A stretch of DNA of 32,000 nucleotides from Gemmata obscuriglobus. Lineage in GTDB: Bacteria; Planctomycetota; Planctomycetia; Gemmatales; Gemmataceae. Below the pieces are notes generated by a model. The model saw only the letters and a program-made list of their open reading frames with translations. It was not told the origin of the DNA and did not search any database. The position numbers and the translations under genes were made by a program. The first letter of the stretch is position 1, and every line of letters begins with the position of its first letter. The stretch covers positions 5,280,001-5,312,000 of the forward strand of contig NZ_CP042911.1 in the NCBI RefSeq assembly GCF_008065095.1, written 5' to 3'. Shown here in pieces: positions 4,471 to 32,000 of this stretch.

Positions 4471-4896
4471 GACGGGTTCTCCTTGCGGACGGCTCGACGG
4501 TAACAAGGCCGCGCGAACCGTTGCGGCCCCGGCGCCCGAGGCGTATCCTATTCCGAACAGAGCGCCGAAGCCTCGTCGCCGGAATTCTCGTCACGATGCC
4601 GTTCCAACGCCCCAACGCCGGCACCCAACGCGACGAGTTCGCACTCGTCGCGGTGCCGGTCTTCGCGGTCGAAGACACGGGCTTCACCTGAGTGCGGGCC
4701 GTGTAGCCGCGGCTGATGCGCGGTCACTCTCGAAACGGTCCGTTTCCCAACAGCACCCGAACGCTCCTTCCCCAACCTTCTCCAAGCAGGAAGGTGGGAG
4801 CCAACGCCCGCGCCGCGCGAAGCGAGCGGCAGGCGCGGCAATCGGATTTCGGCACGCTCGTTTACGGGAACTGATTCCTTCCCCTTGAGCGCACGG

Positions 4897-5118
4897 ATGA
4901 ACGACGAACCCGATTGGGACGCCGGCGGCATGGGCTGCGGCGAGCTGGTCATGCTGCTCCGGATGCGGTTACTGCCGCTCGCGCCGGGCACACGGTTCAC
5001 CGTGCGCGCGACCGACGCGGCGGCGCCGGAAGACATCCCCGCCTGGTGCCGGCTCACCCGGCACGCGCTCGTTTCGGCCCGGCACCCGATTTACGTCATC
5101 CAGCGAAGGGAGAACTGA
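4897..5118 (+). CDS. TusA-like sulfur-carrier family protein (variant C-G-x-L/G motif instead of C-P-x-P)
   Basis: 73 aa from ATG 4897 (the track ORF starts at an upstream TTG at 4885). DAGGMGCGELVMLLRMRL...RFTVRATDAAAPEDIPAWCRLTRHALV aligns position by position with TusA/SirA (LD..G..CP.P.....................D......DI..........L). The candidate active Cys codon is at 4936-4938. Confidence 0.75.
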   Translation: MNDEPDWDAGGMGCGELVMLLRMRLLPLAPGTRFTVRATDAAAPEDIPAWCRLTRHALVSARHPIYVIQRREN

Positions 5119-5119
5119 C

Positions 5120-5482
5120 ATGCCCGGCAAATTCTGCATCAACCTGACCTGCGCGAAGGACAACCCCGACAAGGCCACCGTGGCGTTCGTGGTGGCCAAC
5201 GCGGCCGTCGCGTCGGACCAGGAAACCGTCGTGTTCCTCAGCACCGAGGGCGTCCGGGTCGCGGTGGCCGGGTACGCCGATGAAATCGCCGAAGAGGGCT
5301 TCGCCCCGCTCAAGGAACTCATGGCGAACTTCGCAGCGGCCGGCGGAAAGATCTACGTCTGCTCCCCGTGCTTCAAGAAGCGCAAGCTGGACGAGACCGC
5401 GCTGGTCGCAGGCGCGGTCATGGTCGGTGGGGCGAAGCTGGTGGAGTTCATGAGCACGGGCTGCCCGAGCCTCTCGTACTAG
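5120..5482 (+). CDS. DsrE/DsrF-like family protein
   Basis: ATG lies 1 nt after the TusA-like stop, with a GAAGGGAGA SD-like tract. 120 aa. The NPDKATVAFVVANAA...VVFLSTEGV...GGKIYVCSPC pattern is typical of small DsrE-family proteins. Confidence 0.8.
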   Translation: MPGKFCINLTCAKDNPDKATVAFVVANAAVASDQETVVFLSTEGVRVAVAGYADEIAEEGFAPLKELMANFAAAGGKIYVCSPCFKKRKLDETALVAGAVMVGGAKLVEFMSTGCPSLSY

Positions 5483-5494
5483 CGCGAGGAACCC

Positions 5495-5863
5495 ATGCGG
5501 AACCTGATCCCACTGGCCGTCGCCGCACTCGTAACCGGGTGCGGTGCCCCCGGCCGCCCGGCGTCGGAGGTCGAGCGCGCCCGCGCCGCGGTGACCGCCG
5601 CGCTCGACGGGTGGAAGGCGAACGAGGCCCCCGAGAAGCTCAAGGCGCGCCCGGACCCGGTGGACTTCGCGGACGAGTTGCGCGCGACGCACGCCCTCAC
5701 CGATTACACGGTCGGGAAGGTGGACGGTTCGGACAAGGACGTGGTCCGCGTCACCGTCGTGCTGAAGTTGAAAGACAAGAAGGGCAAGTCGAGCGAGCGC
5801 GAGGCCGTGTACGCCGTCGCACTGCGCGCCCCCGTGGTGGTGTCCCGCGATCCGTACTTTTGA
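5495..5863 (+). CDS. Small lipoprotein, function unknown
   Basis: GAGGA SD, then ATG 12 nt after the DsrE-like stop. The signal plus lipobox is MRNLIPLAVAALVTGC. Confidence 0.7.
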   Translation: MRNLIPLAVAALVTGCGAPGRPASEVERARAAVTAALDGWKANEAPEKLKARPDPVDFADELRATHALTDYTVGKVDGSDKDVVRVTVVLKLKDKKGKSSEREAVYAVALRAPVVVSRDPYF

Positions 5864-5872
5864 GTTCCACCG

Positions 5873-7390
5873 ATGGACTGGTCCGAACGACACACGGTCC
5901 CGCCGGACGCCAGCTTCGACGGCGGCAACCTCGACTGCGGCAACGGGTTGCTCCTGCTGATCCGCCGGCACATCGACCCGCTCACACCGGGTCAGGTGCT
6001 GGAAGTGCGCTCGTCCGAATCGTCCGTGGAAGACGACCTACCCGCGTGGGCGCGGCTCACCGGCAACGCCCTGTTGTCACGCACGCGCTCGGGTGATGTG
6101 CGCAGCTACCTGATTCGCAAAGCCGGCACGGCGTCCAGTACCGCTCCCGCACCGCGCCACCCCGTTGACCGCGAGCGCATTCCGGCGGGACCGTCGCCAA
6201 CCGAAACGGCCGCGGCCCCGGGCACGATCAAGCCCTTCGCTGTGATGGGTGTCGGGAGTTGGCCGCGGCCGGCGTGGCTGGTCCGGGCGCTGCACGAACG
6301 CCTGGCGGGGCGGCTCCCGGAGGACGAGTTCCAGCAGTACGCCGACGACGCGGTCCGGCTCGCGGTCGCGGCCCAGGAGCGCGCCGGCGTTGACGTGGTC
6401 ACCGACGGCGAGCAGCGCCGCGACAACTACGCCAGCTTCGTCGCCACCCGGCTCGACAACTGCCAGCTCATCCCGATCACCGACCTGTTGCCCTACGTCA
6501 CAGACCCCGAACACTTCGCGGAAGAGTTGCGCGCCCTGGATGTGCCTGCCGAAAAGGTGCGTCACCCCGCGGTGTTCGGCCGGCTGGCACGCTCACGCCC
6601 GCTCACGGGTCACGAGTTGAACTTCGCCCGCGCCGTCACGGCGAAACCGGTCAAAGTCGCGCTCCCGGGGCCGTACCTGCTCACACGCACGATGTGGCTC
6701 GAGTGCGTCTCCGACAAAGCCTACCTGGACCGCGAAGCGCTCGCCCGCGACATCGTTTCGGCCCTCCGCGCCGAGGCCAACGACCTCCTCGCCGCCGGCG
6801 CGGCGGTCGTGCAGTTCGACGAGCCCGTTCTGACGGAAGTCGTGTTCGCGCGCCCGACCGCCCGGCAGTCGTTCATGTGCGGCGCGCTGAGCGAGCGCCG
6901 GGCGCTCGCCGAGGAACTCGCGTTCGCGGCGCAGCTCCTTCGCGCGGTGCTGGACGGACTGCCGCGCGAGCGGGTGGCGCTCCACGTGTGCCGCGGGAAC
7001 TGGTCGCGGGACGAGAGCGTCGCGCTGTCCGGGCCGTACACGCCGCTCGTGCCGCTGCTCGCGGAACTGCCGGTCGGCACGCTCTTCCTCGAACTCGCCA
7101 CCCCGCGGGCCGGCGAGTTGGCCCCGCTGGCGGACCTCCCCAAAGGGTGCCGGGTCGGGGTGGGCGTCGTGAACCAGAAGCTCGACCGCGTCGAACCGAT
7201 CGACGAAATCGTGGCGAAGGCGACCGCGGCGGCCGAGCTGTTCGGCCCCGAGCGGGTGCTCCTCAACCCCGACTGCGGGTTCGCCACGTTCGCGGACAGC
7301 CCCGTGTCATCGGCCGGAGTGGCCGAGGCGAAACTCGGGGCGATCGCACAGGCCGCGCGCGTGCTCCGCGCGCGGTACGGGTTGGGCTGA
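5873..7390 (+). CDS. Fusion protein: N-terminal TusA-like domain + P/A/T-rich linker + single-barrel cobalamin-independent methionine synthase (MetE C-terminal / Meth_synt_2) family domain
   Basis: ATG lies 9 nt after the lipoprotein stop. Residues 12-82 are [20 protein letters not shown]...[25 protein letters not shown] (TusA-like; Cys22 codon at 5936-5938). Residues ~125-505 carry the MetE-family motifs [18 protein letters not shown], Zn-ligand-type H371-x-C373 (LHVCRGN), E407 (LFLELAT) and C468 (LLNPDCGF). Confidence 0.85.
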
Positions 7391-7434: not shown

Positions 7435-8454
7435 GTGGTTCGGAACTCAAGGTCGAAGGGCTTCACGCTGATCGAGTTGCTCGTGGTGATCGCGATCATC
7501 GCGGTGCTGATCGGGCTGTTGCTCCCGGCGGTCCAGAAGGTCCGGGAAGCCGCCGCGCGGTCGCAATCACAGAACAACCTGAAGCAGATCGCGCTGGCGA
7601 CACGGAGCTTCGAGGCAAACCACGAAACCACCCCGCCGATCTTCGGCCAGCTCCGCGGCAGCGGCACCTCGGGCTCGGTTTTCTACCACCTGCTGCCGCA
7701 CTTCGAGCAGAGCGCGGTGTACAACCTCGGGCCGGACGCCGCCCGGGCGCAGCCGCTCAAGGTGCTGCGGCACCCGGCGGACCGCACGATGACCGGCGAC
7801 GGCGTGTTCGACCTGCCCACGGCCGCGCCCTCCTGGGCCGCCTCGACCGGCACCGCGAACCCGTACCCGGCGTGGGCGAACTCGGCCAACACCACGTGGG
7901 GGCTGAGCAGCTACTCGGCCAACTGGCAGGTGTTCGGCGACCAGGGCGCCCGGCTGACGAAGATCCAGGACGGGCTGTCGAACACGATCATCTTCAACGA
8001 GAAGTACGCGGTCGCGACGCGGCCGAGCGGGAACCCGATGTTCGGCGCCACCCTGTGGGGCTACGGCGTCGACCCGCGGACGATCCCGAACGACTTCACA
8101 CCGGCGCTGGCGGTCGGGCAGTACCCGGGCGACGCGCAGTGGGCAAACGGGTTGGCGGCCACATCGCTGTACGTGAACGGCTACTGGCCGCGCACCGGGT
8201 TCGTGAACAAGGGCGGCCCGGTGACGACCGCGTGGACCGGCACCGCGCCGTGGATGTGCCGGTGCATGTTGCGCCCGGAGTTCGCGCCGCCGCCCAACAA
8301 CGCGCACTGCCTGAAATCGCAGAGCATTAGCTCGTCGGGCATCCATGTGGCGTTCGCCGACGGCTCAGTACGGTTTATCAGTAGCGGCGTGAGCGACCCG
8401 AACTGGTCCGCGGGTGAAACGCCGGCCGACGGCGAAGTGATTGCTCCGGATTGA
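7435..8454 (+). CDS. DUF1559 (H-X9-DG-like) protein with prepilin-type N-terminal cleavage/methylation domain
   Basis: GTG at 7435 lies 7 nt after AGGAGG. The N-terminus [33 protein letters not shown] and the C-terminal [13 protein letters not shown] are hallmarks of this planctomycete family. The upstream 247 codons of track ORF 6694-8454 overlap the MetE-like gene and are Arg-rich artefact. Confidence 0.9.
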
Positions 8455-8491
8455 GAAGCGTCTGTTGAGGACGGAACGTGCGTTTCTGCAG

Positions 8492-8512
8492 AGCCCGCTC
8501 TGCGAGCGGGCT
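8492..8512 (+). terminator. 9-bp stem / 3-nt loop hairpin after the DUF1559 gene
   Basis: AGCCCGCTC-tgc-GAGCGGGCT followed by GTTGT, 38 nt after the stop. Confidence 0.45.
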
Positions 8513-8680
8513 GTTGTCACCCCGCCAACGGAAATCTCATCCGTGCGCGAAGCCTGACTCGGGAGCGGGCGAACCACCTTGCACACGAGCTTACAGTTCA
8601 CCTGCACCGCCATCACCGGATGAGCAGCGCGTCACAAACCCGACGGTGGTGTCAGGTGCAGTGCCGGGTTCGGCCGGTCT

Positions 8681-8956
8681 TTACAGTCCCCAGCGTAACC
8701 CGACCGATTCGGACTCCAGATCGACAGCCACGAACAGTTCGCCGCCGTCAATCACACTGCCGTCTGGCGGGACCGGGGCGAACAGGACGAGCCACGCAAC
8801 GGGGTGTTTGGATGCTCGACTCGGTGGAACCAGTGGGTTCGGGGACGCCCCACGGAGCCGCCACTCGTGGCAGTCCGGCCGATTAGCGACGAAAGCCGCG
8901 GCCCGACGGATTGCCTCAGCTTGAGCATCTTCCCGTGAGTATCGCAGCCGAGCCAA
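8681..8956 (-). CDS. Possible small hypothetical protein (91 aa, TTG start)
   Basis: The C-terminal two-thirds of track ORF 8681-9079 have a protein-like composition (HPVAWLVLFAPVPPDGSVIDGGELFVAVDLESESV). TTG at 8956 has GAGG 8 nt upstream. The annotated ATG at 9079 lies inside a palindrome, so it is doubtful. No family was recognised. Confidence 0.3.
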   Translation of the reverse strand: MARLRYSREDAQAEAIRRAAAFVANRPDCHEWRLRGASPNPLVPPSRASKHPVAWLVLFAPVPPDGSVIDGGELFVAVDLESESVGLRWGL

Positions 8957-9011
8957 ACCGTTGCCCTCTGGGTGCCGAACCGGCTGTTGGTGTGCGTTTC
9001 GGTTTTTGTCT

Positions 9012-9079
9012 TTGTGGCACAGACATTCCTGTCTGTGCGGCCTTATCGCGCCGCACAGACAGGAATGTCTGTGCCACAA
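9012..9079. repeat. Perfect 30-bp inverted repeat with 8-nt spacer; each arm holds a nested 8-bp palindrome
   Basis: TTGTGGCACAGACATTCCTGTCTGTGCGGC-cttatcgc-GCCGCACAGACAGGAATGTCTGTGCCACAA. The inner units are CACAGACA-ttcc-TGTCTGTG (9018-9037) and its mirror (9054-9073). Verified base by base. Confidence 0.9.
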
Positions 9080-22900: not shown

Positions 22901-25900
22901 CTACCCGGTTCGGGACCGAAGGTGTTGCGAGTGGTCGAGCGCCTCACGCACCTTGGCGGCCAGCGATTCGGACAAAAACGGCTTGGGCAGGAAGTGCTCG
23001 GTGTCGCACCGGACGCCGTACTTGAGCAGCGAACCGTCGGTGTAGCCGCTCATAAACAGCACTTCGAGCCCGGGCCGTCCGGCCCGGAGTTGCTCGGCGA
23101 CGACCCGGCCGCTGGCCCCTGGCAGGACCACATCCGTGAGCAGCAGGTGGATCGGCCCCGGGTGCGCGGCCGCCACCGCCAGCGCCTCGGCCCCGTCCGA
23201 CGCTTCAAGGACCTTGTACCCGCGGGCGGTCAGGGTGAGGCGAGCGAAGGCCCGGACGCGCGCATCGTCTTCCACCACCAGAACCGTTTCCGCGCCGCCC
23301 GCGGGCGACACGGTCGGAACCGTTACCGGCCCGGGCGCGGCCGGCTCGGCCGCGCGGGGAAAGTAGATGTCGAACCGGGTTCCGGCCCCGGGCGCACTCG
23401 TCACGGCCAGGTGCCCGGCGCTCTGCTCGACGATCCCGTACACAGTGGACAACCCGAGCCCGGTCCCGTGTCCCGCGGCCTTCGTTGTGAAGAACGGTTC
23501 GAAGATCCGCGACAGCACATCCTGCGACATCCCCGTGCCGGTGTCGGACACACTCAGCCGCACGTGCGGCCCGGGCCGCGCCCCCCTGTGCTCCCGGGCG
23601 TACCCCTCGTCCAGCTCCGCGTTCCCGATCTCGACGGTTAGGGCGCCCCCGGTCGGCATCGCGTCCCGGGCGTTGACCGCCAGGTTCATGAGCACCTGTT
23701 CGATCTGCCCCGGGTCGGCGCGGACCGGCCACACCCGAGCCCCGGCGCTCACCCGCAACCGGATGTCGGCGCCGAGCAACTGGCGGAGCAACTTCTCGGT
23801 GCCGCGCGTCACCGTACTAAGGTCCAGCACCTGCGGGGCGAGTACCTGCTGCCGGCTGAACGCGAGCAACTGGCGGGTGAGGTCGGCCGACCGCTTTCCG
23901 GCGTGCCGGATCTCCTCAATGTGCTCTCGCAGCGGGCTCTTCGGCCCCACCTCGTTAAGGAGCAAGGTGCTGTAGCCGTTGATGACCGTCAGCAAGTTGT
24001 TGAAGTCGTGCGCCACCCCGCCCGCCAGCCGCCCCAGCGCGTCCATCTTTTGAGCCTGGCGGAACTGGTCCTCCAGGTTGCGTCGCCGGGTCACGTCCGT
24101 GTGCACCCCGATGAAGTGCGTCAGCCGGCCCGTCGCGTCCCGCACCGGGGAGATCGACAGCTCGCTCCAGAAGGGGGAGCCGTCCTTCTTGTAGTTCAAC
24201 AGCTCCACGGCACACGGCACGCCGGCGCGCACCGCCGCGCGGACCTGCGCGACCGCCTCCGCGCTCGTGTCCCGCCCCTGCAGCAGGTGCCAGTTCCGCC
24301 CCATCACCTCCGCGGCGGTGTACCCCGTCAGCCGCTCGAACCCCGGGCTGGCGAACACGACGGGGTGGTCCGGGTGCTCGGCGTCGGAGATCAGGATGCC
24401 CTGCGTCACGGCCTGGATGGCGCGGTCCCGCACGCGCAGCGCCTCCTCGGCCGCGCGCCGGGCGGTCACATCTTGGGTCAGGCACAGGAACCCGGTGAAC
24501 CGGCCGTCGTCGCCGAAGAGCGGGGTGTTGTGCCACTCGCAGACGATGACCCGCCCGTCCCGGGTGAGGTTCTCGTTAACGGAGTGGGCCGACATGTCCC
24601 CGCTTCGGATCCGCTCGAACAGTACCCCGGCCTCGTGTTGGGACGAGGCCGGCATGAGATCGAACCCGCTCATCCCGAGGGCCGCGCTCCGGGGGTGGCC
24701 GAAAATGCGCTCGGCCGCCGGGTTCCACTCGACGACGCGCGCGTCGGCGCCGAACAGGATGTAGCCCAGCGGCATGCGCTCGATCTGGAGCCGGAGCCGG
24801 GCCAGCAGGGCGTCGCGCTCGCCCGCAAGCCGGTTCCGCTCGGTCACGTCCCGCGAGATCCCGAGCACCCCGACGACGGCCCCGTCGGCGTTACGGTGCG
24901 GGGCCTTGGTGACCGAAAACGTCCGGAGCTGGCCGCCCGTGGTGAGCGCCTCCTCGTCCGTCACCACCCGACCCGTTTCGATCACCTCAAGGTCGTTGCT
25001 CCGGATGACCCGGGCGCTGACCGGGTCGAACAAGTCGGCGTCGGACCGCCCCAGCACCTCGGCGGCGGGGCGGCCCATGACCGCCGCGGCGGCCGAGTTC
25101 GCGAGCAGGTATCGGCCGGCACGATCCTTGACGAAGATCGCGTCCGTCGTGCCCTCGACCACGGCCCCGAGCAACTCGCCGGTCCGCCGCAGTTCCGACG
25201 CCATACGCTCCCGTTCGGTCACGTCCCGAACGATGAGCGTGTAAAACCGCCGCCCGCCCGTCGATCCGAGCGACACCGAAACCTCTGCCGGGAACTCGTC
25301 CCCGCCCTGGCGGATTCCCCGTGCGGGGAACGCTTGTGCCGGCGCGGCGTCACCGTCACCGGCGGACGGCGTGCCGGGAATGAAGTCGCCGACCGGGCGC
25401 CCCAGGGCGCCGGCCGCGGGGCACCGGAACATCCGCTCGGCGGCCGGGTTGAACAGCGTGACCCGCCGGTCCGGCCCGGCGCCGATGATCGCGTCGTGGG
25501 CGGCCGCGATGAGGGACGCGAGCTGACACTCGGTGCGCACCTGCCCGAGCGCCCGTTCGACGGCGTCCGGGAGGTAGTCCAGGTACTCGATCGACTTGGT
25601 GACGAAATCCCGGACCCCGAGGCGCAGCGCCCGGATCACGGTCGCCTCGCTGCTGAACCCGGTCACCAGGATGACCGGGACGTCGTACCCGGCGGCTTTC
25701 ACCTGCACGTAGAAGTCCAGCCCGTCGGTGTCGTCGGGCAGGCGGTAATCGAGGAGGATCAGGTCCACCTCGGTGGTCGCGAGCGCGGCCAGCGCGCCGG
25801 CCGCGGTGGCCGCGACCAGGACCCTGTACCCGGCGTCTTCGAGGCGGACCTGCTCCAGTTCGGCGAGGCCGGCGTCGTCCTCGACGATCAGCACCGTGGC

Positions 25901-25942
25901 GCTCGGGGCGCCGACGTGGGCGAGTGTGGGAGGCGCAATCAT
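22901..25942 (-). CDS. Hybrid sensor histidine kinase: REC - PAS x3 - LOV-like PAS - HisKA - HATPase_c - REC
   Basis: 1013 aa. The N-terminal receiver has VLIVEDD...DLILLDYRLPD. Repeated PAS modules each end in (D)VT(E/A)R. The H-box is GGVAHDFNNLL. G-boxes are DTGTGM and GHGTGLGLS. The C-terminal receiver has VLVVEDD...HLLLTDVVLPG...KPF. Confidence 0.95.
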   Translation of the reverse strand: MIAPPTLAHVGAPSATVLIVEDDAGLAELEQVRLEDAGYRVLVAATAAGALAALATTEVDLILLDYRLPDDTDGLDFYVQVKAAGYDVPVILVTGFSSEATVIRALRLGVRDFVTKSIEYLDYLPDAVERALGQVRTECQLASLIAAAHDAIIGAGPDRRVTLFNPAAERMFRCPAAGALGRPVGDFIPGTPSAGDGDAAPAQAFPARGIRQGGDEFPAEVSVSLGSTGGRRFYTLIVRDVTERERMASELRRTGELLGAVVEGTTDAIFVKDRAGRYLLANSAAAAVMGRPAAEVLGRSDADLFDPVSARVIRSNDLEVIETGRVVTDEEALTTGGQLRTFSVTKAPHRNADGAVVGVLGISRDVTERNRLAGERDALLARLRLQIERMPLGYILFGADARVVEWNPAAERIFGHPRSAALGMSGFDLMPASSQHEAGVLFERIRSGDMSAHSVNENLTRDGRVIVCEWHNTPLFGDDGRFTGFLCLTQDVTARRAAEEALRVRDRAIQAVTQGILISDAEHPDHPVVFASPGFERLTGYTAAEVMGRNWHLLQGRDTSAEAVAQVRAAVRAGVPCAVELLNYKKDGSPFWSELSISPVRDATGRLTHFIGVHTDVTRRRNLEDQFRQAQKMDALGRLAGGVAHDFNNLLTVINGYSTLLLNEVGPKSPLREHIEEIRHAGKRSADLTRQLLAFSRQQVLAPQVLDLSTVTRGTEKLLRQLLGADIRLRVSAGARVWPVRADPGQIEQVLMNLAVNARDAMPTGGALTVEIGNAELDEGYAREHRGARPGPHVRLSVSDTGTGMSQDVLSRIFEPFFTTKAAGHGTGLGLSTVYGIVEQSAGHLAVTSAPGAGTRFDIYFPRAAEPAAPGPVTVPTVSPAGGAETVLVVEDDARVRAFARLTLTARGYKVLEASDGAEALAVAAAHPGPIHLLLTDVVLPGASGRVVAEQLRAGRPGLEVLFMSGYTDGSLLKYGVRCDTEHFLPKPFLSESLAAKVREALDHSQHLRSRTG
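24083..24430 (-). other. LOV-type PAS domain (residues ~505-620 of the kinase) lacking the photoactive cysteine
   Basis: ILISDAEHPDHPVVFASPGFERLTGYTAAEVMGRNWHLLQG...LLNYKKDGSPFWSELSISPV...FIGVHTDVT aligns with the LOV consensus ..ITDA...D.PI.FAS..F...TGY...E..GRNCRFLQG...L.NY.KDG..FWN.L...P....G....FIGVQ.D.T. The W551 codon (CCA on the plus strand) is at 24290-24292. Confidence 0.7.
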
Positions 25943-25993
25943 CAGTGGGTTCCCTGCGTTCGGCCGGGTGCCGGCCCGGTGCTCCGTGCGTCG

Positions 25994-28129
25994 TCAGGCC
26001 CGCGAGCCGGCGAGCGCCGCCGGTTCGTTCGCGCTGAGCACCTGCCGCACCTTCGTCAGCAGATCGTCCACCTCGAACGGCTTCTGAAGGAACTCGGCGT
26101 CGGCCGACTCGATCCCGTGGCGCACCCGCGGGTCGTCGGTGTACCCGCTCATGTACAGGAGCCGCAGGCCCGGGTCCTGCTCGCGGAGCGCGTCGGCCAG
26201 CTCCCGCCCGCTCATCCCCGACATGACCACGTCGGTCAGCAGGAGGTGGATGGGGCCGCGGGTCTTGTAGAGTTCGAGCGCCTCCTCGCCGCTGCCCGCT
26301 TCCGCCACCTTGTACCCGGCGCCGCGCAGGGTGAGCGCCGCGAGCACGCGCACCGGGCGCTCGTCCTCGACCAGCAGCACCGTTTCACCACCGCGCGGGC
26401 GGGGCGTGGCCGCCGCCTTCGGCACGACCGGGACCGGCTTCGCCGCGGCCGGCAAGTACATCGTGAACGTGGTGCCCACCCCGATCGTGCTGTCCACCAC
26501 GATGTGCCCGCCCGACTGTTTGACGATGCCGTACACGGACGCCAGCCCGAGCCCGGCCCCCTTGCCGACCCCCTGGGTCGAAAAGAACGGCTCGAAGATC
26601 TGCCCCTTCACGTCGACCGTCATGCCGTACCCGGTGTCGGCGACCATCAACCGGACGTACCGGCCGGGGGCCAAATCGCCGGGCGCCGGCCCGCCGTCGT
26701 GGAGGTCCACCGCGTCCGTCGTGAGCGTGAGGCGGCCGCCCTGCGGCATCGCCTCGCGGGCGTACACGCACAGGGTCGCGAGCGCCTGCTCGATCTGGTC
26801 CGGGTCGGCCGAAACGAGGCCGAGGTTGGTGCCCAAGGCGAGCACCAGGCGCACGTCGCCGCCGACCAATTTGGTAAGCACCTTCTGAGCCTCGGTCACC
26901 AGCCCGTTCACGTTGAGCACCTGGGGGCGCAGCACCTGCAAGCGGCCGAACGCGAGGAGCTGCCGCGTCAGGTCGGTGGCGCGGGCGCTCGCGGCGCGGA
27001 CCTCCCCGAGCGCGTCACCGGCGGGGGTGCCCTCCGGACACACGGCGATGAGCTGCCGGGTGTAGCCGTTGATGATGGTGAGCAGGTTGTTGAAGTCGTG
27101 CGCCACCCCGCCCGCGAGCTGGCAGATCGCGTCCATCTTCTGCGTCTGGCGGAACTGGTCCTCGTGGCGGCGCGCGGCCGTCACGTCCTGTGCGAGTGAC
27201 AGGACCCCCTGAAACGTGCCCGCGGCGTCAACGAGCGGCGCGTGGTGCCACTCGCACAGGATCTCGCGCCCGCTCTTGGTGACGTTCTCGGCCACCTCGT
27301 GCGCGTCGCGGTCCCCGGTCGCGAGCCGGGCGAACGTGCTCTCGGCGGCGCCCCGCGCACGCGCCGGAACGACCACCTCGAACGGGCGCTTGCCGAGCAC
27401 CTCGGCCCGGGCGAACCCGAACACTCGCTCGGCGGCGCTGTTCCAGTAGGTGTACCGGTTGGCCTCGTCGCTCAGCAGGTAGGCGAGCGGCAGGAGTTCG
27501 AGTTGGAACGCCAGACGGGTGCGTTCGTCGGCGCCCGCGGCCCCCTCGTGCGCCACTTCGGTGTGCGTGCCGACCCACTCGCGCACCGTTCCGTCCGCGT
27601 CCAGAATCGGCACCCCACGGACGACCATTCGGCGGTATTCGCCGCTCGCGTGCCAGAGCCGGTGCTCCGTTTCGAACTCACGCCGCTCGGACCGCGCCGC
27701 CGCCCAGGCGCCGCGGTACGGCTCCTGGTCTTCCGGGTGCACAACACGCAGCCACCCGTGCCCCCGGTGCTCGCCGAACGGTTGGCCCGTGAACGCGCTC
27801 CACTCCGGCTGCTCGGTTTCAAATTCCCCGACCGGGTCTGCGCGCCACACGATCGCGACGGACGTGCTGACCAGGGCACGGAACCGCTCCTCGTTCGCCC
27901 GCAGTTCGTCCTCGGCGCGGGTCCGCTCGGCGAGTTCGTGCCGGAGCCCGTCGGCGTCGGCGGCCAAACCGGCCGTGCGAATCCGGACCCGCGACTCGAG
28001 CGTGTCGGTCGCCTGTCGCAACAGCGCGGCCGTCTGATCCCGCTCTCGGGCGACGCGCCGAACGAAAACGACCAACAGCCCACCGAGAGCGAAAGCTGCT
28101 CCCGCCGCGATCGCCAATGCGAATACCAT
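25994..28129 (-). CDS. Membrane-anchored hybrid sensor histidine kinase: TM - coiled coil - PAS x2 - HisKA - HATPase_c - REC
   Basis: ATG at 28129 (MVFALAIAAGAAFALGGLLVVF). The track ORF starts 4 codons upstream at TTG 28141. The H-box GGVAHDFNNLL, GKGAGLGLAS and the receiver VLLVEDE...HLLLTDVVMSG...KPF are present. The transmitter and receiver are clearly paralogous to the downstream kinase. Confidence 0.9.
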   Translation of the reverse strand: MVFALAIAAGAAFALGGLLVVFVRRVARERDQTAALLRQATDTLESRVRIRTAGLAADADGLRHELAERTRAEDELRANEERFRALVSTSVAIVWRADPVGEFETEQPEWSAFTGQPFGEHRGHGWLRVVHPEDQEPYRGAWAAARSERREFETEHRLWHASGEYRRMVVRGVPILDADGTVREWVGTHTEVAHEGAAGADERTRLAFQLELLPLAYLLSDEANRYTYWNSAAERVFGFARAEVLGKRPFEVVVPARARGAAESTFARLATGDRDAHEVAENVTKSGREILCEWHHAPLVDAAGTFQGVLSLAQDVTAARRHEDQFRQTQKMDAICQLAGGVAHDFNNLLTIINGYTRQLIAVCPEGTPAGDALGEVRAASARATDLTRQLLAFGRLQVLRPQVLNVNGLVTEAQKVLTKLVGGDVRLVLALGTNLGLVSADPDQIEQALATLCVYAREAMPQGGRLTLTTDAVDLHDGGPAPGDLAPGRYVRLMVADTGYGMTVDVKGQIFEPFFSTQGVGKGAGLGLASVYGIVKQSGGHIVVDSTIGVGTTFTMYLPAAAKPVPVVPKAAATPRPRGGETVLLVEDERPVRVLAALTLRGAGYKVAEAGSGEEALELYKTRGPIHLLLTDVVMSGMSGRELADALREQDPGLRLLYMSGYTDDPRVRHGIESADAEFLQKPFEVDDLLTKVRQVLSANEPAALAGSRA

Positions 28130-28431
28130 ACGCTCATCCAATCAACTTGCCTTTTCCGCCTGGTGCATCCGGAACCTTAGAGGCGAAGTAAGGGCGGGCG
28201 TGTCGGGCAAACCCCGCAAAACGTCCGTGCCGGATGAGCGGGTGCGGGATGATTGTGGGCGCGAGAGAAGTTCTAGGGCGGTGCGCGACGCGGCTGTCAC
28301 GTCGCGTGTGGCCAACACATACTTATTTTGCGAATCTGTAACGGCTCGATTACAGTGAGCCTCACCAAGAAGTGGTTCCGCATCGAACGCAGCAGCCTGC
28401 ATTTGCTCCAAAATGCGGTGTCATCATCATC

Positions 28432-30536: not shown

Positions 30537-31217
30537 TCACGGGCCGTGGGGCACGCTGCCGTCGTAGGACACGCTGTTCGCCCGGCCGAGGTGGCGCACC
30601 GGGGCGTGCCGGGCGGCCCGCTGAGCGGCGTCCGCGGCCCAACCGGTAAAGTGATCGGTAGCGCTGCGACAGGCCGGAAGATCGTCGTGCTCGAAAACGA
30701 GCACGCTCCCGCCGACCGCGCTCAATTTCTTGCCCCCCACGTCGGGGTTGATCGCGTAGCCGATCTGGAACGCGCCGCCCCGCGTCGGGCTGTCGGCACC
30801 GGCGTCGACCGCGTCGGGACAGCGGAACACGCGCACCGAGTTTTCAACGAACGGCGTCACGGCCCCGGCGGGCGTGTACCCCGGCAGCGCGCTGGTAACC
30901 GTGGCCCCGGGGCGGTTGTCGTAGGGGCACCACCAGGTTTCGTTCGGCCCGGTGAAGGTGTTCGCCGGGTCGCACGCGCGGCACAGCGGGTCTTTGCCGC
31001 CCTGCCACGGGGCGGGACAGGCGCGTGCGAACGGCAGCGTCTTGTGGGCGTCGTGGTACATGTGGAGGCCGAGGCCGATCTGCCGCAAGTTGTTCTTACA
31101 GACGGCGCCGTTGGCGGCGGCCCGGCCCCGTTGCACGGCGGGCAACAGCAGAGCGAAGAGCACCCCGAGGATCGTGAGCACGACAAGGGTTTCGAGGAGC
31201 GATAATCCGCGCCGCAT
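30537..31217 (-). CDS. DUF1559-like protein with prepilin-type N-terminal methylation domain
   Basis: ATG at 31217 is preceded by GGAGG. The N-terminus is [32 protein letters not shown]. The C-terminal [14 protein letters not shown] fits H-X9-DG. Confidence 0.85.
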
Positions 31218-31269
31218 GACGCCTCCGGAACGCCACCCGACCGGGCACCGCGCGGGCGGACCGGAGCGG

Positions 31270-32000
31270 TCAGCACTGGGACTGGATGGCCGCCACAATG
31301 GCCCCCAGGTCGTTCGGCACCTGGACGGCCCGGTTTGCGAACGACACCGATTTCACGCCCCGCTTGCCGAGCTTCGCCTCAAACGTGGCGGGGTCGGCAC
31401 TGTGGTACGCGACAGTCTCGTCCGAGTCCTTCAGGACGTGGCCGGTCAGGATACAGACGACGCTCGCGTCGCGTTCGATCACGCCTTCGGCGACGAGGTG
31501 ACGGAGGCCGGCGACGCTCGCACCGCTCGCGGGCTCGCACCCGAGGCCGCCGGCCCCGACCTTCGCTTTCGCGTCCAAGATCTGCGCGTCGGGGACCGCC
31601 CGCACGACGCCGTTGCAGCAATCCAGAGCCCGGAGCGCCTTCGGCAGGTTCACCGGACGGTTGATCTCGATCGCGCTGGCGAGCGTGTCGGGCTTCCGGT
31701 TCGTCGCATCGAGTTCACCGTAATACCCGCTAACGCCGGCCGCATCGAACGCCCCGCCGTTCCAGCGCAGCCCGAGTCGCTCGTGGAGTTGGTAGGCGGT
31801 GTGGGCGCCCTCGGCGTTGATAACGGCGAGCCGTGGCAGGCGCGCGATCAGCCCCAGTTCGCGCAGCTCGAAGAACGCTTTTGCGAAGGCCGACACGTTC
31901 CCGAGGTTCCCGCCGGGGACGACCACCCAGTCCGGGACCTCCCACCGGAGCGCCTCCAGCACCCGGAACATGATCGTCTTCTGCCCCTCGAGCCGGAACG
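31270..32000 (-). CDS. thrC: Threonine synthase, C-terminal part (5' end outside the window)
   Basis: The frame stays open to the window edge (…[17 protein letters not shown]…). [11 protein letters not shown] and the C-terminal [10 protein letters not shown] follow the PLP-dependent threonine synthase pattern. Confidence 0.9.

Follow-up and report, generated by a model that had tools for sequence, protein, structure and literature searches.

What is a methionine synthase-like enzyme doing in the company of proteins that resemble sulfur carriers, and why is it tethered to one of them? These questions are raised by four genes of the planctomycete Gemmata obscuriglobus, contained in a 32,000-nucleotide stretch of its genome (contig NZ_CP042911.1, positions 5,280,001 to 5,312,000; assembly GCF_008065095.1) that we refer to here as the window. 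The genes lie on the plus strand at window positions 4897-7390 and are separated by gaps of only 1, 12 and 9 nucleotides, and the coordinates given in an earlier reading of the sequence alone (the original prediction) are confirmed. In order, they encode a stand-alone TusA-like protein of 73 amino acids (4897-5118, with an alternative TTG start at 4885), a DsrE-like protein of 120 amino acids (5120-5482), a predicted lipoprotein of 122 amino acids (5495-5863), and a 505-residue fusion protein (5873-7390). The last of these consists of a second TusA-like domain (residues 1-85; 5873-6127), a flexible linker rich in proline, alanine and threonine (residues 86-121; 6128-6235), and a (beta/alpha)8 barrel of the core-MetE type (residues 122-505; 6236-7390). 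We report that three of these genes constitute a conserved module in which the cysteine-bearing carriers appear to be functionally coupled to the MetE-type enzyme, and tentatively propose that the carriers bring sulfur to its zinc site.

The grouping of these genes is by no means peculiar to Gemmata. When one genome per GTDB species was scanned and module partners were located by tblastn with the window proteins, TusA-like, DsrE-like and enzyme genes were found together in 37 of the best 80 genome loci, an arrangement that is far beyond chance. The cultured hosts represent three phyla (Xanthobacter, Caballeronia, Duganella, Neobacillus, Bacillus and Gemmata), and metagenome-assembled genomes (MAGs) extend the distribution to about six more, with representatives that carry the MAG assignments Rokubacteria, Binatota, Terriglobia, Actinomycetota, Dehalococcoidia, Anaeromyxobacter and Poribacteria. 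Two classes of module can be distinguished. In class A (25 loci, comprising 23 intact open reading frames [ORFs] and two that are interrupted by TAG codons) the TusA-like domain and the enzyme are fused, and its members come from the Planctomycetota, Beta- and Alphaproteobacteria, Rokubacteria, Binatota, Terriglobia, Actinomycetota, Dehalococcoidia and Anaeromyxobacter, including the cultured proteobacteria Duganella aceris, Caballeronia sp. and Xanthobacter tagetidis. In class B (12 loci) a tusA-like gene, a dsrE-like gene and a tusA::osmC gene are adjacent to a separate enzyme gene, such that an OsmC-like domain follows the TusA-like domain, both in a protein distinct from the enzyme; hosts include Neobacillus novalis, Bacillus sp. 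FJAT-29790, Poribacteria, Planctomycetota and Terriglobia. Protein databases tell a similar story: the 120 best matches to the fusion are 67-100% identical to it and nearly all contain both Pfam domains, 7,722 proteins match at E <= 1e-5, and an exhaustive search of 50%-identity representatives yields 190 clusters at E <= 1e-30. NCBI annotation names the fusion protein either as an ordinary MetE or as a 'TusA family protein'.

The conserved core is thus composed of three genes: tusA-like, dsrE-like and tusA-like::core-metE. The original prediction envisaged a unit of four; the trio is conserved at 37 loci, but the lipoprotein is not. Its product has a signal peptide and a lipobox (LVTG-C) and matches nothing in Pfam or NCBIfam, and among the 37 module loci only L001 has a homologue (36% identity); in the remaining 36 the dsrE gene adjoins the enzyme gene or is separated from it by other genes. 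The lipoprotein gene is therefore a Gemmata-lineage-specific insert that lies outside the conserved module. PhnD/PhnE/PhnC-like ABC transporter genes are inserted between the dsrE-like gene and the fusion in L011, L013, L017 (for example, L017:5433-7965) and L019, an insertion seen in Duganella, Caballeronia and Rokubacteria. No neighbor outside the module proved to be conserved when the flanks were clustered all-versus-all and 184 flanking ORFs were put through a Pfam census; AhpC and DinB genes appear sporadically, and the three genes therefore constitute an autonomous and evidently mobile module. One Poribacteria genome has a homologue of SBP56, of the methanethiol-oxidase type, divergent to the module (L034:3513-4904, minus strand; Pfam E = 1e-177); as a single case, this may be fortuitous or may point to chemistry of methanethiol or selenium.

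What kind of enzyme does the module serve? Pfam profile searches bear out the domain assignments made earlier, as TusA, DsrE and Meth_synt_2 all score above their gathering thresholds, with the barrel matching Meth_synt_2 (PF01717) at 108 bits over residues 126-474. The absence of a folate barrel likewise stands, since Meth_synt_1 gives only a sub-threshold 14.5-bit cross-match inside the C-terminal domain, and the N-terminus is TusA-like. Zinc ligands are present as H371 (6983-6985), C373 (6989-6991), E407 (7091-7093) and C468 (7274-7276), together with the homocysteine triad S129, E180 and D316 and the motifs DGE178 and DEP316. HMMER alignments with the MesD structure 3RPD and with Thermotoga maritima MetE place the first four on the zinc ligands and the triad on the homocysteine ligands of both proteins, and all seven residues are invariant in 81 of 81 aligned enzymes (64 of the subfamily and 17 of an out-group). 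The triad corresponds to residues to which Price et al. (PMC7857596) ascribe binding of homocysteine or methionine through the carboxyl and amino groups. The original prediction located C22 of the TusA-like domain, the zinc ligands and both motifs at these positions, but missed an additional cysteine, Cys336, to which we return below.

In spite of these shared residues, the fusion falls below the cutoff of every NCBIfam methionine synthase model, scoring 78 bits against a cutoff of 930 for TIGR01371, 88 against 541 for PRK05222, and 106 against 392 for PRK09121, the MesD model. An AlphaFold2 (AF2) model (mean predicted local distance difference test score [pLDDT] 82; predicted template-modeling score [pTM] 0.75) comprises a TusA-like alpha/beta domain, a disordered linker and a TIM barrel, and Foldseek finds the best matches of the barrel among MetE C-terminal domains and MesD, with template-modeling (TM) scores of up to 0.83 when normalized to target length. 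MesD 3RPD is the nearest solved structure, both by sequence (E = 1.9e-21) and by fold (TM 0.81-0.83). A segment of about 20 residues within residues 196-228 characterizes the subfamily and stands in place of a MetE loop, and the class A clade has invariant cysteines of its own, C197 and C278. A paralogue cluster 51% identical to the fusion (P0125, 503 amino acids) retains the homocysteine triad and, in its TusA-like domain, the DCG motif, and has lost the ligands His371, Glu407 and Cys468 as well as Cys336; Cys373 appears to be kept in the alignment. It may be a non-catalytic or regulatory derivative.

The partner proteins have the hallmarks of cysteine-based carriers. The stand-alone TusA-like protein matches Pfam TusA (PF01206) at 36.7 bits (gathering score 28.6), and its Cys14, within a C-G-E-L motif, aligns to the persulfide-carrying Cys19 of Escherichia coli TusA (1DCJ/3LVJ), with its second cysteine, Cys51, aligning to Cys56; among 39 homologues these are kept in 97% and 100%, respectively. 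The N-terminal domain of the fusion scores 29.9 bits over residues 27-83, marginally above the same gathering score, and its Cys22 (5936-5938), within a D-C-G-N-G motif, also aligns to Cys19 and is kept without exception in two sets of 39 and 60 homologues. The two domains are paralogous, as had been proposed, with 42% identity (E = 2e-15), and retention of the carrier cysteine in both is likewise upheld. Neither reaches the 78-bit cutoff of the NCBIfam TusA equivalog NF001423 (38.7 bits for the stand-alone protein and 21.3 for the fusion), and for this reason the stand-alone protein is not regarded as an orthologous TusA. The shared motif D-x-G-G-x-x-C-G described previously is present in the stand-alone protein (DAGGMGCG) but not in the fusion (DGGNLDCG); what they have in common is D-x-G-x-x-x-C-G, in which C-G replaces C-P, and this C-G is conserved throughout the TusA-like homologues of the module. 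CPXP has been described as characteristic of TusA (PMC11094781). In the AF2 model, the TusA-like domain of the fusion has pLDDT values of 84-96 that drop to about 70 at the cysteine loop, and the linker, which varies in length and sequence across homologues, is disordered (below 50 over residues 87-113). The stand-alone TusA-like protein also matched the N-terminal part of the radical-SAM model Rv1681, but too weakly (E = 0.003) for the match to be used.

The DsrE-like protein matches its own family profile (PF02635) at 59 bits against a gathering score of 22.7. Both cysteines of its C81-S-P-C84 motif are invariant in 38 of 38 homologues, and C81 aligns to the cysteine of the Sulfolobus DsrE-like protein 3MC3 at the DsrE/TusD active-site position. 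At 51-79% identity across phyla, compared with 45-76% for the enzyme, the carrier is the more conserved of the two. It is also a single gene, as no dsrF or dsrH (tusC or tusB) paralogue lies beside it in the window or in the 37 module loci. When homologues of the DsrE-like protein were sought, the relatives recovered were all at least 81% identical and offered no alternative contexts.

A distinctive feature of the enzyme itself is Cys336 (codon TGC at 6878-6880; motif F-M-C-G-A-L), which lies in a low-confidence loop of the AF2 model that runs from beta-6, the strand with D316, to alpha-6 on the catalytic face of the barrel. Of the 64 subfamily enzymes, 58 have cysteine at this position and six have an in-frame TGA, and the residue is missing from the 17 aligned out-group enzymes. 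The TGA codons (L033:8658-8660, L057:9437-9439, L054:695-697, L048:9385-9387, L061:1065-1067 and L062:2409-2411) fall into two distant clades, with L061 (Atopococcus) and L062 (Gemella) forming a Firmicutes branch. Apparent frameshifts in L033 and L057 prove to be in-frame TGA codons, past which the reading frame runs on through the zinc ligands, and the genes of L048, L054, L061 and L062 behave in the same way. In the four genes from Planctomycetota and Verrucomicrobiota (L033, L048, L054 and L057) a hairpin lies downstream of the TGA, with a 6-bp apical stem (ACCCGC...GCGGGU) about 15 nucleotides past it and a CGUGAY loop; folding z-scores are -3.3, -3.2, -1.6 and -1.3, and synonymous sites in the stretch from TGA to hairpin are almost invariant. 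A scan for the exact pattern recovered 47 metagenome contigs (L081-L127) with both TGA and hairpin, all 47 of which read FM*ATLAT. Among the contigs that include flanks, at least 24 contain the DsrE and TusA::OsmC set with the C-[SAT]-P-C and C-G motifs intact.

The in-frame TGA and hairpin in these relatives constitute a bacterial selenoprotein signature, and the encoded residue is putatively selenocysteine (Sec). Together with the lack of this residue in the out-group, the presence of Cys or TGA at position 336 implies thiol or selenol chemistry at the active site, unlike that of MetE or MesD. Among the selenoprotein families of prokaryotes covered in a 2022 review are DsrE-like (UxxC), OsmC-like and rhodanese-like forms, but no MetE/COG0620 family. 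The relatives with TGA seem to represent a selenoprotein variant within the MetE family that has so far gone unlisted. The database protein P0144 has W at position 336, probably because its TGA was translated with genetic code 4. The in-frame stops in the otherwise intact fusion genes of L008 (8635-10224) and L014 (8571-10154) were also considered as selenocysteine and rejected, as both are TAG codons at differing, non-conserved positions; pseudogenes or sequencing errors in the MAGs are the probable cause.

Are carriers the only partners that such enzymes keep? Stand-alone enzymes with 37-49% identity have the subfamily insert at residues 196-228 and different neighbors. An OsmC-like protein is encoded at 20 of their 27 loci, and in eight loci of Chloroflexota (seven Dehalococcoidia and one Anaerolineae) the enzyme and OsmC genes precede one for a tandem rhodanese that preserves the active-site motif CRSG. 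Other neighbors are an acyl-CoA dehydrogenase (ACAD)-like gene at nine loci and a Phosphonate-bd/SBP-like gene, lacking a signal peptide, at ten; their best NCBIfam matches, solid but below the family cutoffs, are the Rv1679 and Rv1680 families, whose Mycobacterium tuberculosis genes are uncharacterized. An island of four genes – ACAD-like (Rv1679-like), cytoplasmic SBP-like (Rv1680-like), core-MetE-like and OsmC-like – is evident at L043:6003-9630 and L044:5920-9633, and also at L047, L050 and L059, and is common to Haemophilus haemolyticus and Peptoniphilaceae/Clostridiales, suggesting horizontal transfer. A role for the OsmC-like domain as a peroxidase or as a member of a cysteine relay was considered and discarded, its cysteine being replaced by Asp, Ala or Glu in many instances; it is more likely to be an adaptor.

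In a neighbor-joining tree, all class A fusions form a single clade nested among interspersed class B, OsmC-plus-rhodanese and OsmC-plus-ACAD-plus-SBP variants. One locus appears to preserve a record of the exchange: the class B enzyme of L057 shares 79.5% identity with its ACAD/SBP-linked counterpart in L033, and a C-terminal remnant of an SBP-like gene (L057:6902-7219) lies directly upstream of the tusA-like gene of L057, which together indicate that one partner set was displaced in situ by the other. The out-group enzymes (about 33% identity) keep the zinc and homocysteine residues, and constitute another uncharacterized core-MetE context, in which a nucleotidyltransferase-like gene precedes the enzyme in 10 of the 15 loci L066-L080 (for example, L072:7157-7921 beside 7971-9056) and is fused to it in P0227.

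How does the module compare with systems that have been described? The closest analogue is MesD with its partner MesX (Price et al. 2021, PMC7857596; 3RPD), in that MesD too consists of one MetE-type barrel and lacks a folate domain, has the same zinc (H, C, E, C) and homocysteine (S, E, D) ligands, and relies on one or more unrelated partner proteins. However, the fusion is only about 24% identical to MesD 3RPD, as compared with the threshold of about 72% or more for MesD of the ACIAD3523 type, and it differs in its cysteine-carrier partners, its fused N-terminal TusA-like domain and its loop Cys/Sec336; no MesX (DUF1852) gene was found among the window neighbors or in the neighbor censuses. 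The catalytic barrel fold, zinc site and homocysteine pocket are held in common with MetE (PF08267 plus PF01717), from which the fusion departs by its lack of a folate barrel, its residue 196-228 segment and its additional Cys336. MesA, MesB and MesC are also core barrels that take the transferred group from a partner protein rather than from methyl-folate; their partners, however, are corrinoid proteins (MtrA, CoFeSP) that belong to methanogenesis or the Wood-Ljungdahl pathway, and a comparison of gene contexts found no such genes in module loci. The hosts of MesA, MesB and MesC are anaerobes, whereas those of the module are mostly soil and freshwater heterotrophs and are taken to be mainly aerobic.

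On the carrier side, the module resembles the relays that run from TusA through DsrEFH or TusBCD to DsrC or TusE, and the thiosulfonate transfer by DsrE3A and TusA (PMC4175335, PMC11094781), in which TusA and DsrE genes are also side by side and whose sulfur-carrying cysteines align with the conserved cysteines of the module carriers; in relatives of the module, rhodanese appears as an alternative point of entry. It differs from them in having C-G in place of C-P-x-P and a lone DsrE-like protein with CxPC, without DsrF/DsrH or TusC/TusB, and in its end acceptor, which is a MetE-type enzyme rather than DsrC, sHdr or MnmA. There are also precedents in which the sulfur of homocysteine or cysteine comes from a protein-bound donor instead of free sulfide, namely HcyS/MetY of Wolinella and CysO/CysM of M. 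tuberculosis, both of which use ubiquitin-like thiocarboxylate carriers and pyridoxal phosphate (PLP) enzymes. The module has neither a PLP enzyme nor a ThiS/MoaD-like carrier. Full-text literature searching returned no description of a TusA-MetE fusion, of the three-gene module or of a MetE-like selenoprotein, in agreement with the original prediction, to which no characterized MetE-type enzyme fused to a sulfur-relay module was known.

What, then, might the module do? Functional coupling of the cysteine carriers to the MetE-type enzyme is supported, on sequence grounds, by the conserved synteny, the invariant carrier cysteines, the substitution of rhodanese in Chloroflexota, and the presence of Cys or Sec in the enzyme. 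Characterized members of the TusA and DsrE families carry persulfide or thiosulfonate sulfur on the cysteines that are conserved here (PMC4175335, PMC11094781). The explanation that we prefer as the most economical, though we place it somewhat short of an even chance, is that a cysteine relay brings sulfane sulfur to the homocysteine-type zinc site. Sulfane sulfur, as a persulfide or possibly a thiosulfonate, would pass from Cys14 of the free TusA-like protein to Cys81-x-x-Cys84 of the DsrE-like protein and thence to Cys22 of the tethered TusA-like domain, which the flexible linker of about 30 residues would allow to reach the catalytic face of the barrel. From there it would be relayed to the mobile-loop Cys336 (selenocysteine in some relatives), which, with the His/Cys/Glu/Cys zinc site, would act on a homocysteine-type amino acid held at Ser129, Glu180 and Asp316. 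Because sulfur would be delivered by the relay to a zinc-bound substrate, the net reaction would be a carrier-dependent sulfur transaction (C-S or S-S) on a substrate of the homocysteine or methionine type, such as formation of the homocysteine thiol from carrier-bound sulfur, rather than a transfer of methyl groups supplied by methyl-folate. What the relay carries, which way it flows, the carbon substrate and the chemical step are all inferred. A more specific form of the proposal, which we regard as unlikely, is a PLP-independent homocysteine (or methionine) synthase dependent on carrier persulfide, in which sulfur is joined by way of Cys/Sec336 and zinc to an activated four-carbon amino acid (O-acyl- or O-phospho-homoserine) at the Ser/Glu/Asp triad; sulfur would then enter methionine by a new route, and the MetE family would have its first selenoprotein form.

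Several observations weigh against delivery of sulfur by a relay. C-P-x-P is missing from both TusA-like domains, which have C-G-E-L and C-G-N-G instead; all characterized PF01717 enzymes with this residue set are homocysteine methyltransferases; the module itself points to neither a carbon-skeleton substrate nor a reductant; the cysteine of the OsmC-like domain is not conserved, leaving its role unexplained; and an enzyme 79.5% identical to a carrier-linked one is paired with ACAD-like and SBP-like partners without a sulfur carrier, a pairing for which a relay of sulfur alone does not account, and the partners may therefore supply something other than sulfur, for example electrons. A possible but rather doubtful alternative is a fifth folate-independent 'core' methionine synthase, in which the barrel methylates zinc-bound homocysteine and the partners generate, present or recycle a methyl donor, as MesX does for MesD. 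Invariance of all seven predictor residues of Price et al. would be expected of such an enzyme, its nearest solved relatives are indeed MesD and MetE, MesD itself is a precedent for a core MetE that needs an unrelated partner (MesX) as well as O2, and the variable partner sets could be alternative donor systems. Chemically, however, persulfide-bearing cysteine carriers are not a plausible vehicle for an activated methyl group, the Cys/Sec of the active-site loop is foreign to MetE and MesD, the NCBIfam scores are all far below cutoff, and no gene for a corrinoid protein, MesX or a methyltransferase partner was found in the module or in the neighbor censuses. Most of the cultured hosts (Burkholderiaceae, Bacillus) would normally have MetE, MetH or both, which also counts against this alternative, as does the finding that no S-box or T-box riboswitch precedes the Firmicutes versions (Bacillaceae or Peptoniphilaceae). 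Taken together, the lack of a folate barrel, of a corrinoid or MesX partner and of an S-box or T-box argues against an ordinary methionine synthase.

The partner swap is best accommodated by a different idea, that the enzyme is a thiol or selenol reductase whose Cys/Sec336 attacks an oxidized sulfur amino acid (for example free methionine sulfoxide, or a disulfide or persulfide of homocysteine) and is re-reduced by the TusA-like, DsrE-like or flavoprotein partners; reducing equivalents could come from either a cysteine relay or an ACAD-type flavoprotein, and of all the readings this one best explains a flavoprotein set in place of the relay. Redox active sites are the normal place of selenocysteine, selenoproteins with UxxC are known among DsrE-like families and CxPC is invariant in the DsrE-like protein of the module, the methionine-type pocket is kept, no methionine-biosynthesis riboswitch is present, AhpC and DinB genes are sporadic nearby, and the hosts include the host-associated and probably methionine-scavenging Haemophilus haemolyticus, Parvimonas and Gemella. 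We nonetheless consider it distinctly unlikely, given that characterized TusA, DsrE and rhodanese members all carry sulfur and none is known as a general disulfide reductase, that the module has no conserved gene for a thioredoxin or a reductase, and that sulfoxide reduction is without precedent for a His/Cys/Glu/Cys zinc site. Less probable still is detoxification of reactive sulfur species (RSS), essentially what the original prediction proposed, with the enzyme alkylating (methylating) a carrier persulfide, or homocysteine stripping off the sulfane sulfur, such that excess sulfide or polysulfide is removed. Gene sets for persulfide stress typically include TusA-like, DsrE-like, rhodanese and OsmC-like proteins, DsrE4 has been proposed to act in RSS detoxification, and the SBP56 neighbor would fit, albeit as one case; yet methylation of a protein persulfide would have no need of an invariant amino-acid-binding triad, a methyl donor is not evident and nothing in the analysis of the module identifies an alkyl donor, and no persulfide dioxygenase, SQR or CstR/SqrR-type regulator is linked to the module in the 37 loci. 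Finally, there is barely any chance that the fusion is a frameshift or assembly error, or that the TusA-like domains are degenerate structural or regulatory elements without thiol chemistry. The loss of CPxP in both domains, the P0125 cluster with its TusA-like domain and no full set of zinc ligands, and the in-frame TAG stops at two MAG loci could be read in this manner; but the records for G. obscuriglobus contain the same fusion protein at 100% identity, as they do the DsrE-like protein, the 23 intact fusions come from independent genomes that include cultured isolates, more than 100 protein clusters contain both Pfam domains, Cys22, Cys14 and C81/C84 are invariant or nearly so, and the linkage holds where the parts are separate genes. 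The fusion is genuine, and an artefact is essentially excluded.

The last step of methionine synthesis had been ascribed to MetH, to MetE or to four 'core' families defined only recently. The module adds a further and widespread core-MetE subfamily, with thousands of database sequences from isolates of three phyla and MAGs of about six more, and what is new about it is the class of partner, cysteine-based sulfur carriers, and the extra catalytic Cys or Sec residue; it also apparently adds an unlisted selenoprotein family. Whichever reaction is catalyzed – sulfur insertion, carrier-dependent methionine synthesis or reduction – persulfide trafficking would be tied to homocysteine and methionine chemistry in a way not described so far, and if sulfur insertion is the true one, the chemistry could be categorically new. 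Routine mis-annotation of these proteins as 5-methyltetrahydropteroyltriglutamate--homocysteine methyltransferase would corrupt metabolic reconstructions.

The promoter of the operon is presumed to lie in the upstream intergenic region (4507-4896, plus strand), in which neither a sigma-70-like promoter nor a terminator was called. At gathering thresholds, Rfam revealed no riboswitch at the module in the window or at 13 loci, including the Bacillaceae and Peptoniphilaceae versions, the only matches being an unrelated leuS T-box and tRNAs; an E-value-based scan of the window upstream region similarly found no family at threshold, and one tRNA-Sec-like match. The latter (4652-4757, plus strand) scores 21.7 bits against a gathering score of 47, is not seen by ARAGORN, and has a fold z-score of -0.5, and it was dismissed as a chance match.

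The other genes of the window are unrelated to the module, and include those for a muramidase, DUF1559 proteins and PAS histidine kinases, together with lysA-, argH- and dapB-like genes; the overlapping and antisense ORFs that were also listed are a usual by-product of a G+C content of 68-71%. Proteins of the DUF1559/prepilin-type N-terminal-methylation family are encoded at 7435-8454 (plus strand) and 30540-31298 (minus strand). The first of these genes begins 44 nucleotides past the stop codon of the fusion and may be co-transcribed with it. Three flanking ORFs in the neighbor census are DUF1559 genes, mainly at planctomycete copies of the module. Such genes also flank the module at a few other loci of planctomycetes, probably as a consequence of the large size of the family. 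Two large and adjacent hybrid sensor kinases with multiple PAS and receiver domains, unrelated to the module, occupy 22904-28141 (minus strand). At 31273-31971 (minus strand), 24 kb away from the module and with no evident linkage to it, is the C-terminal part of a PALP-family PLP-dependent enzyme that could be of the cysteine or threonine synthase type.

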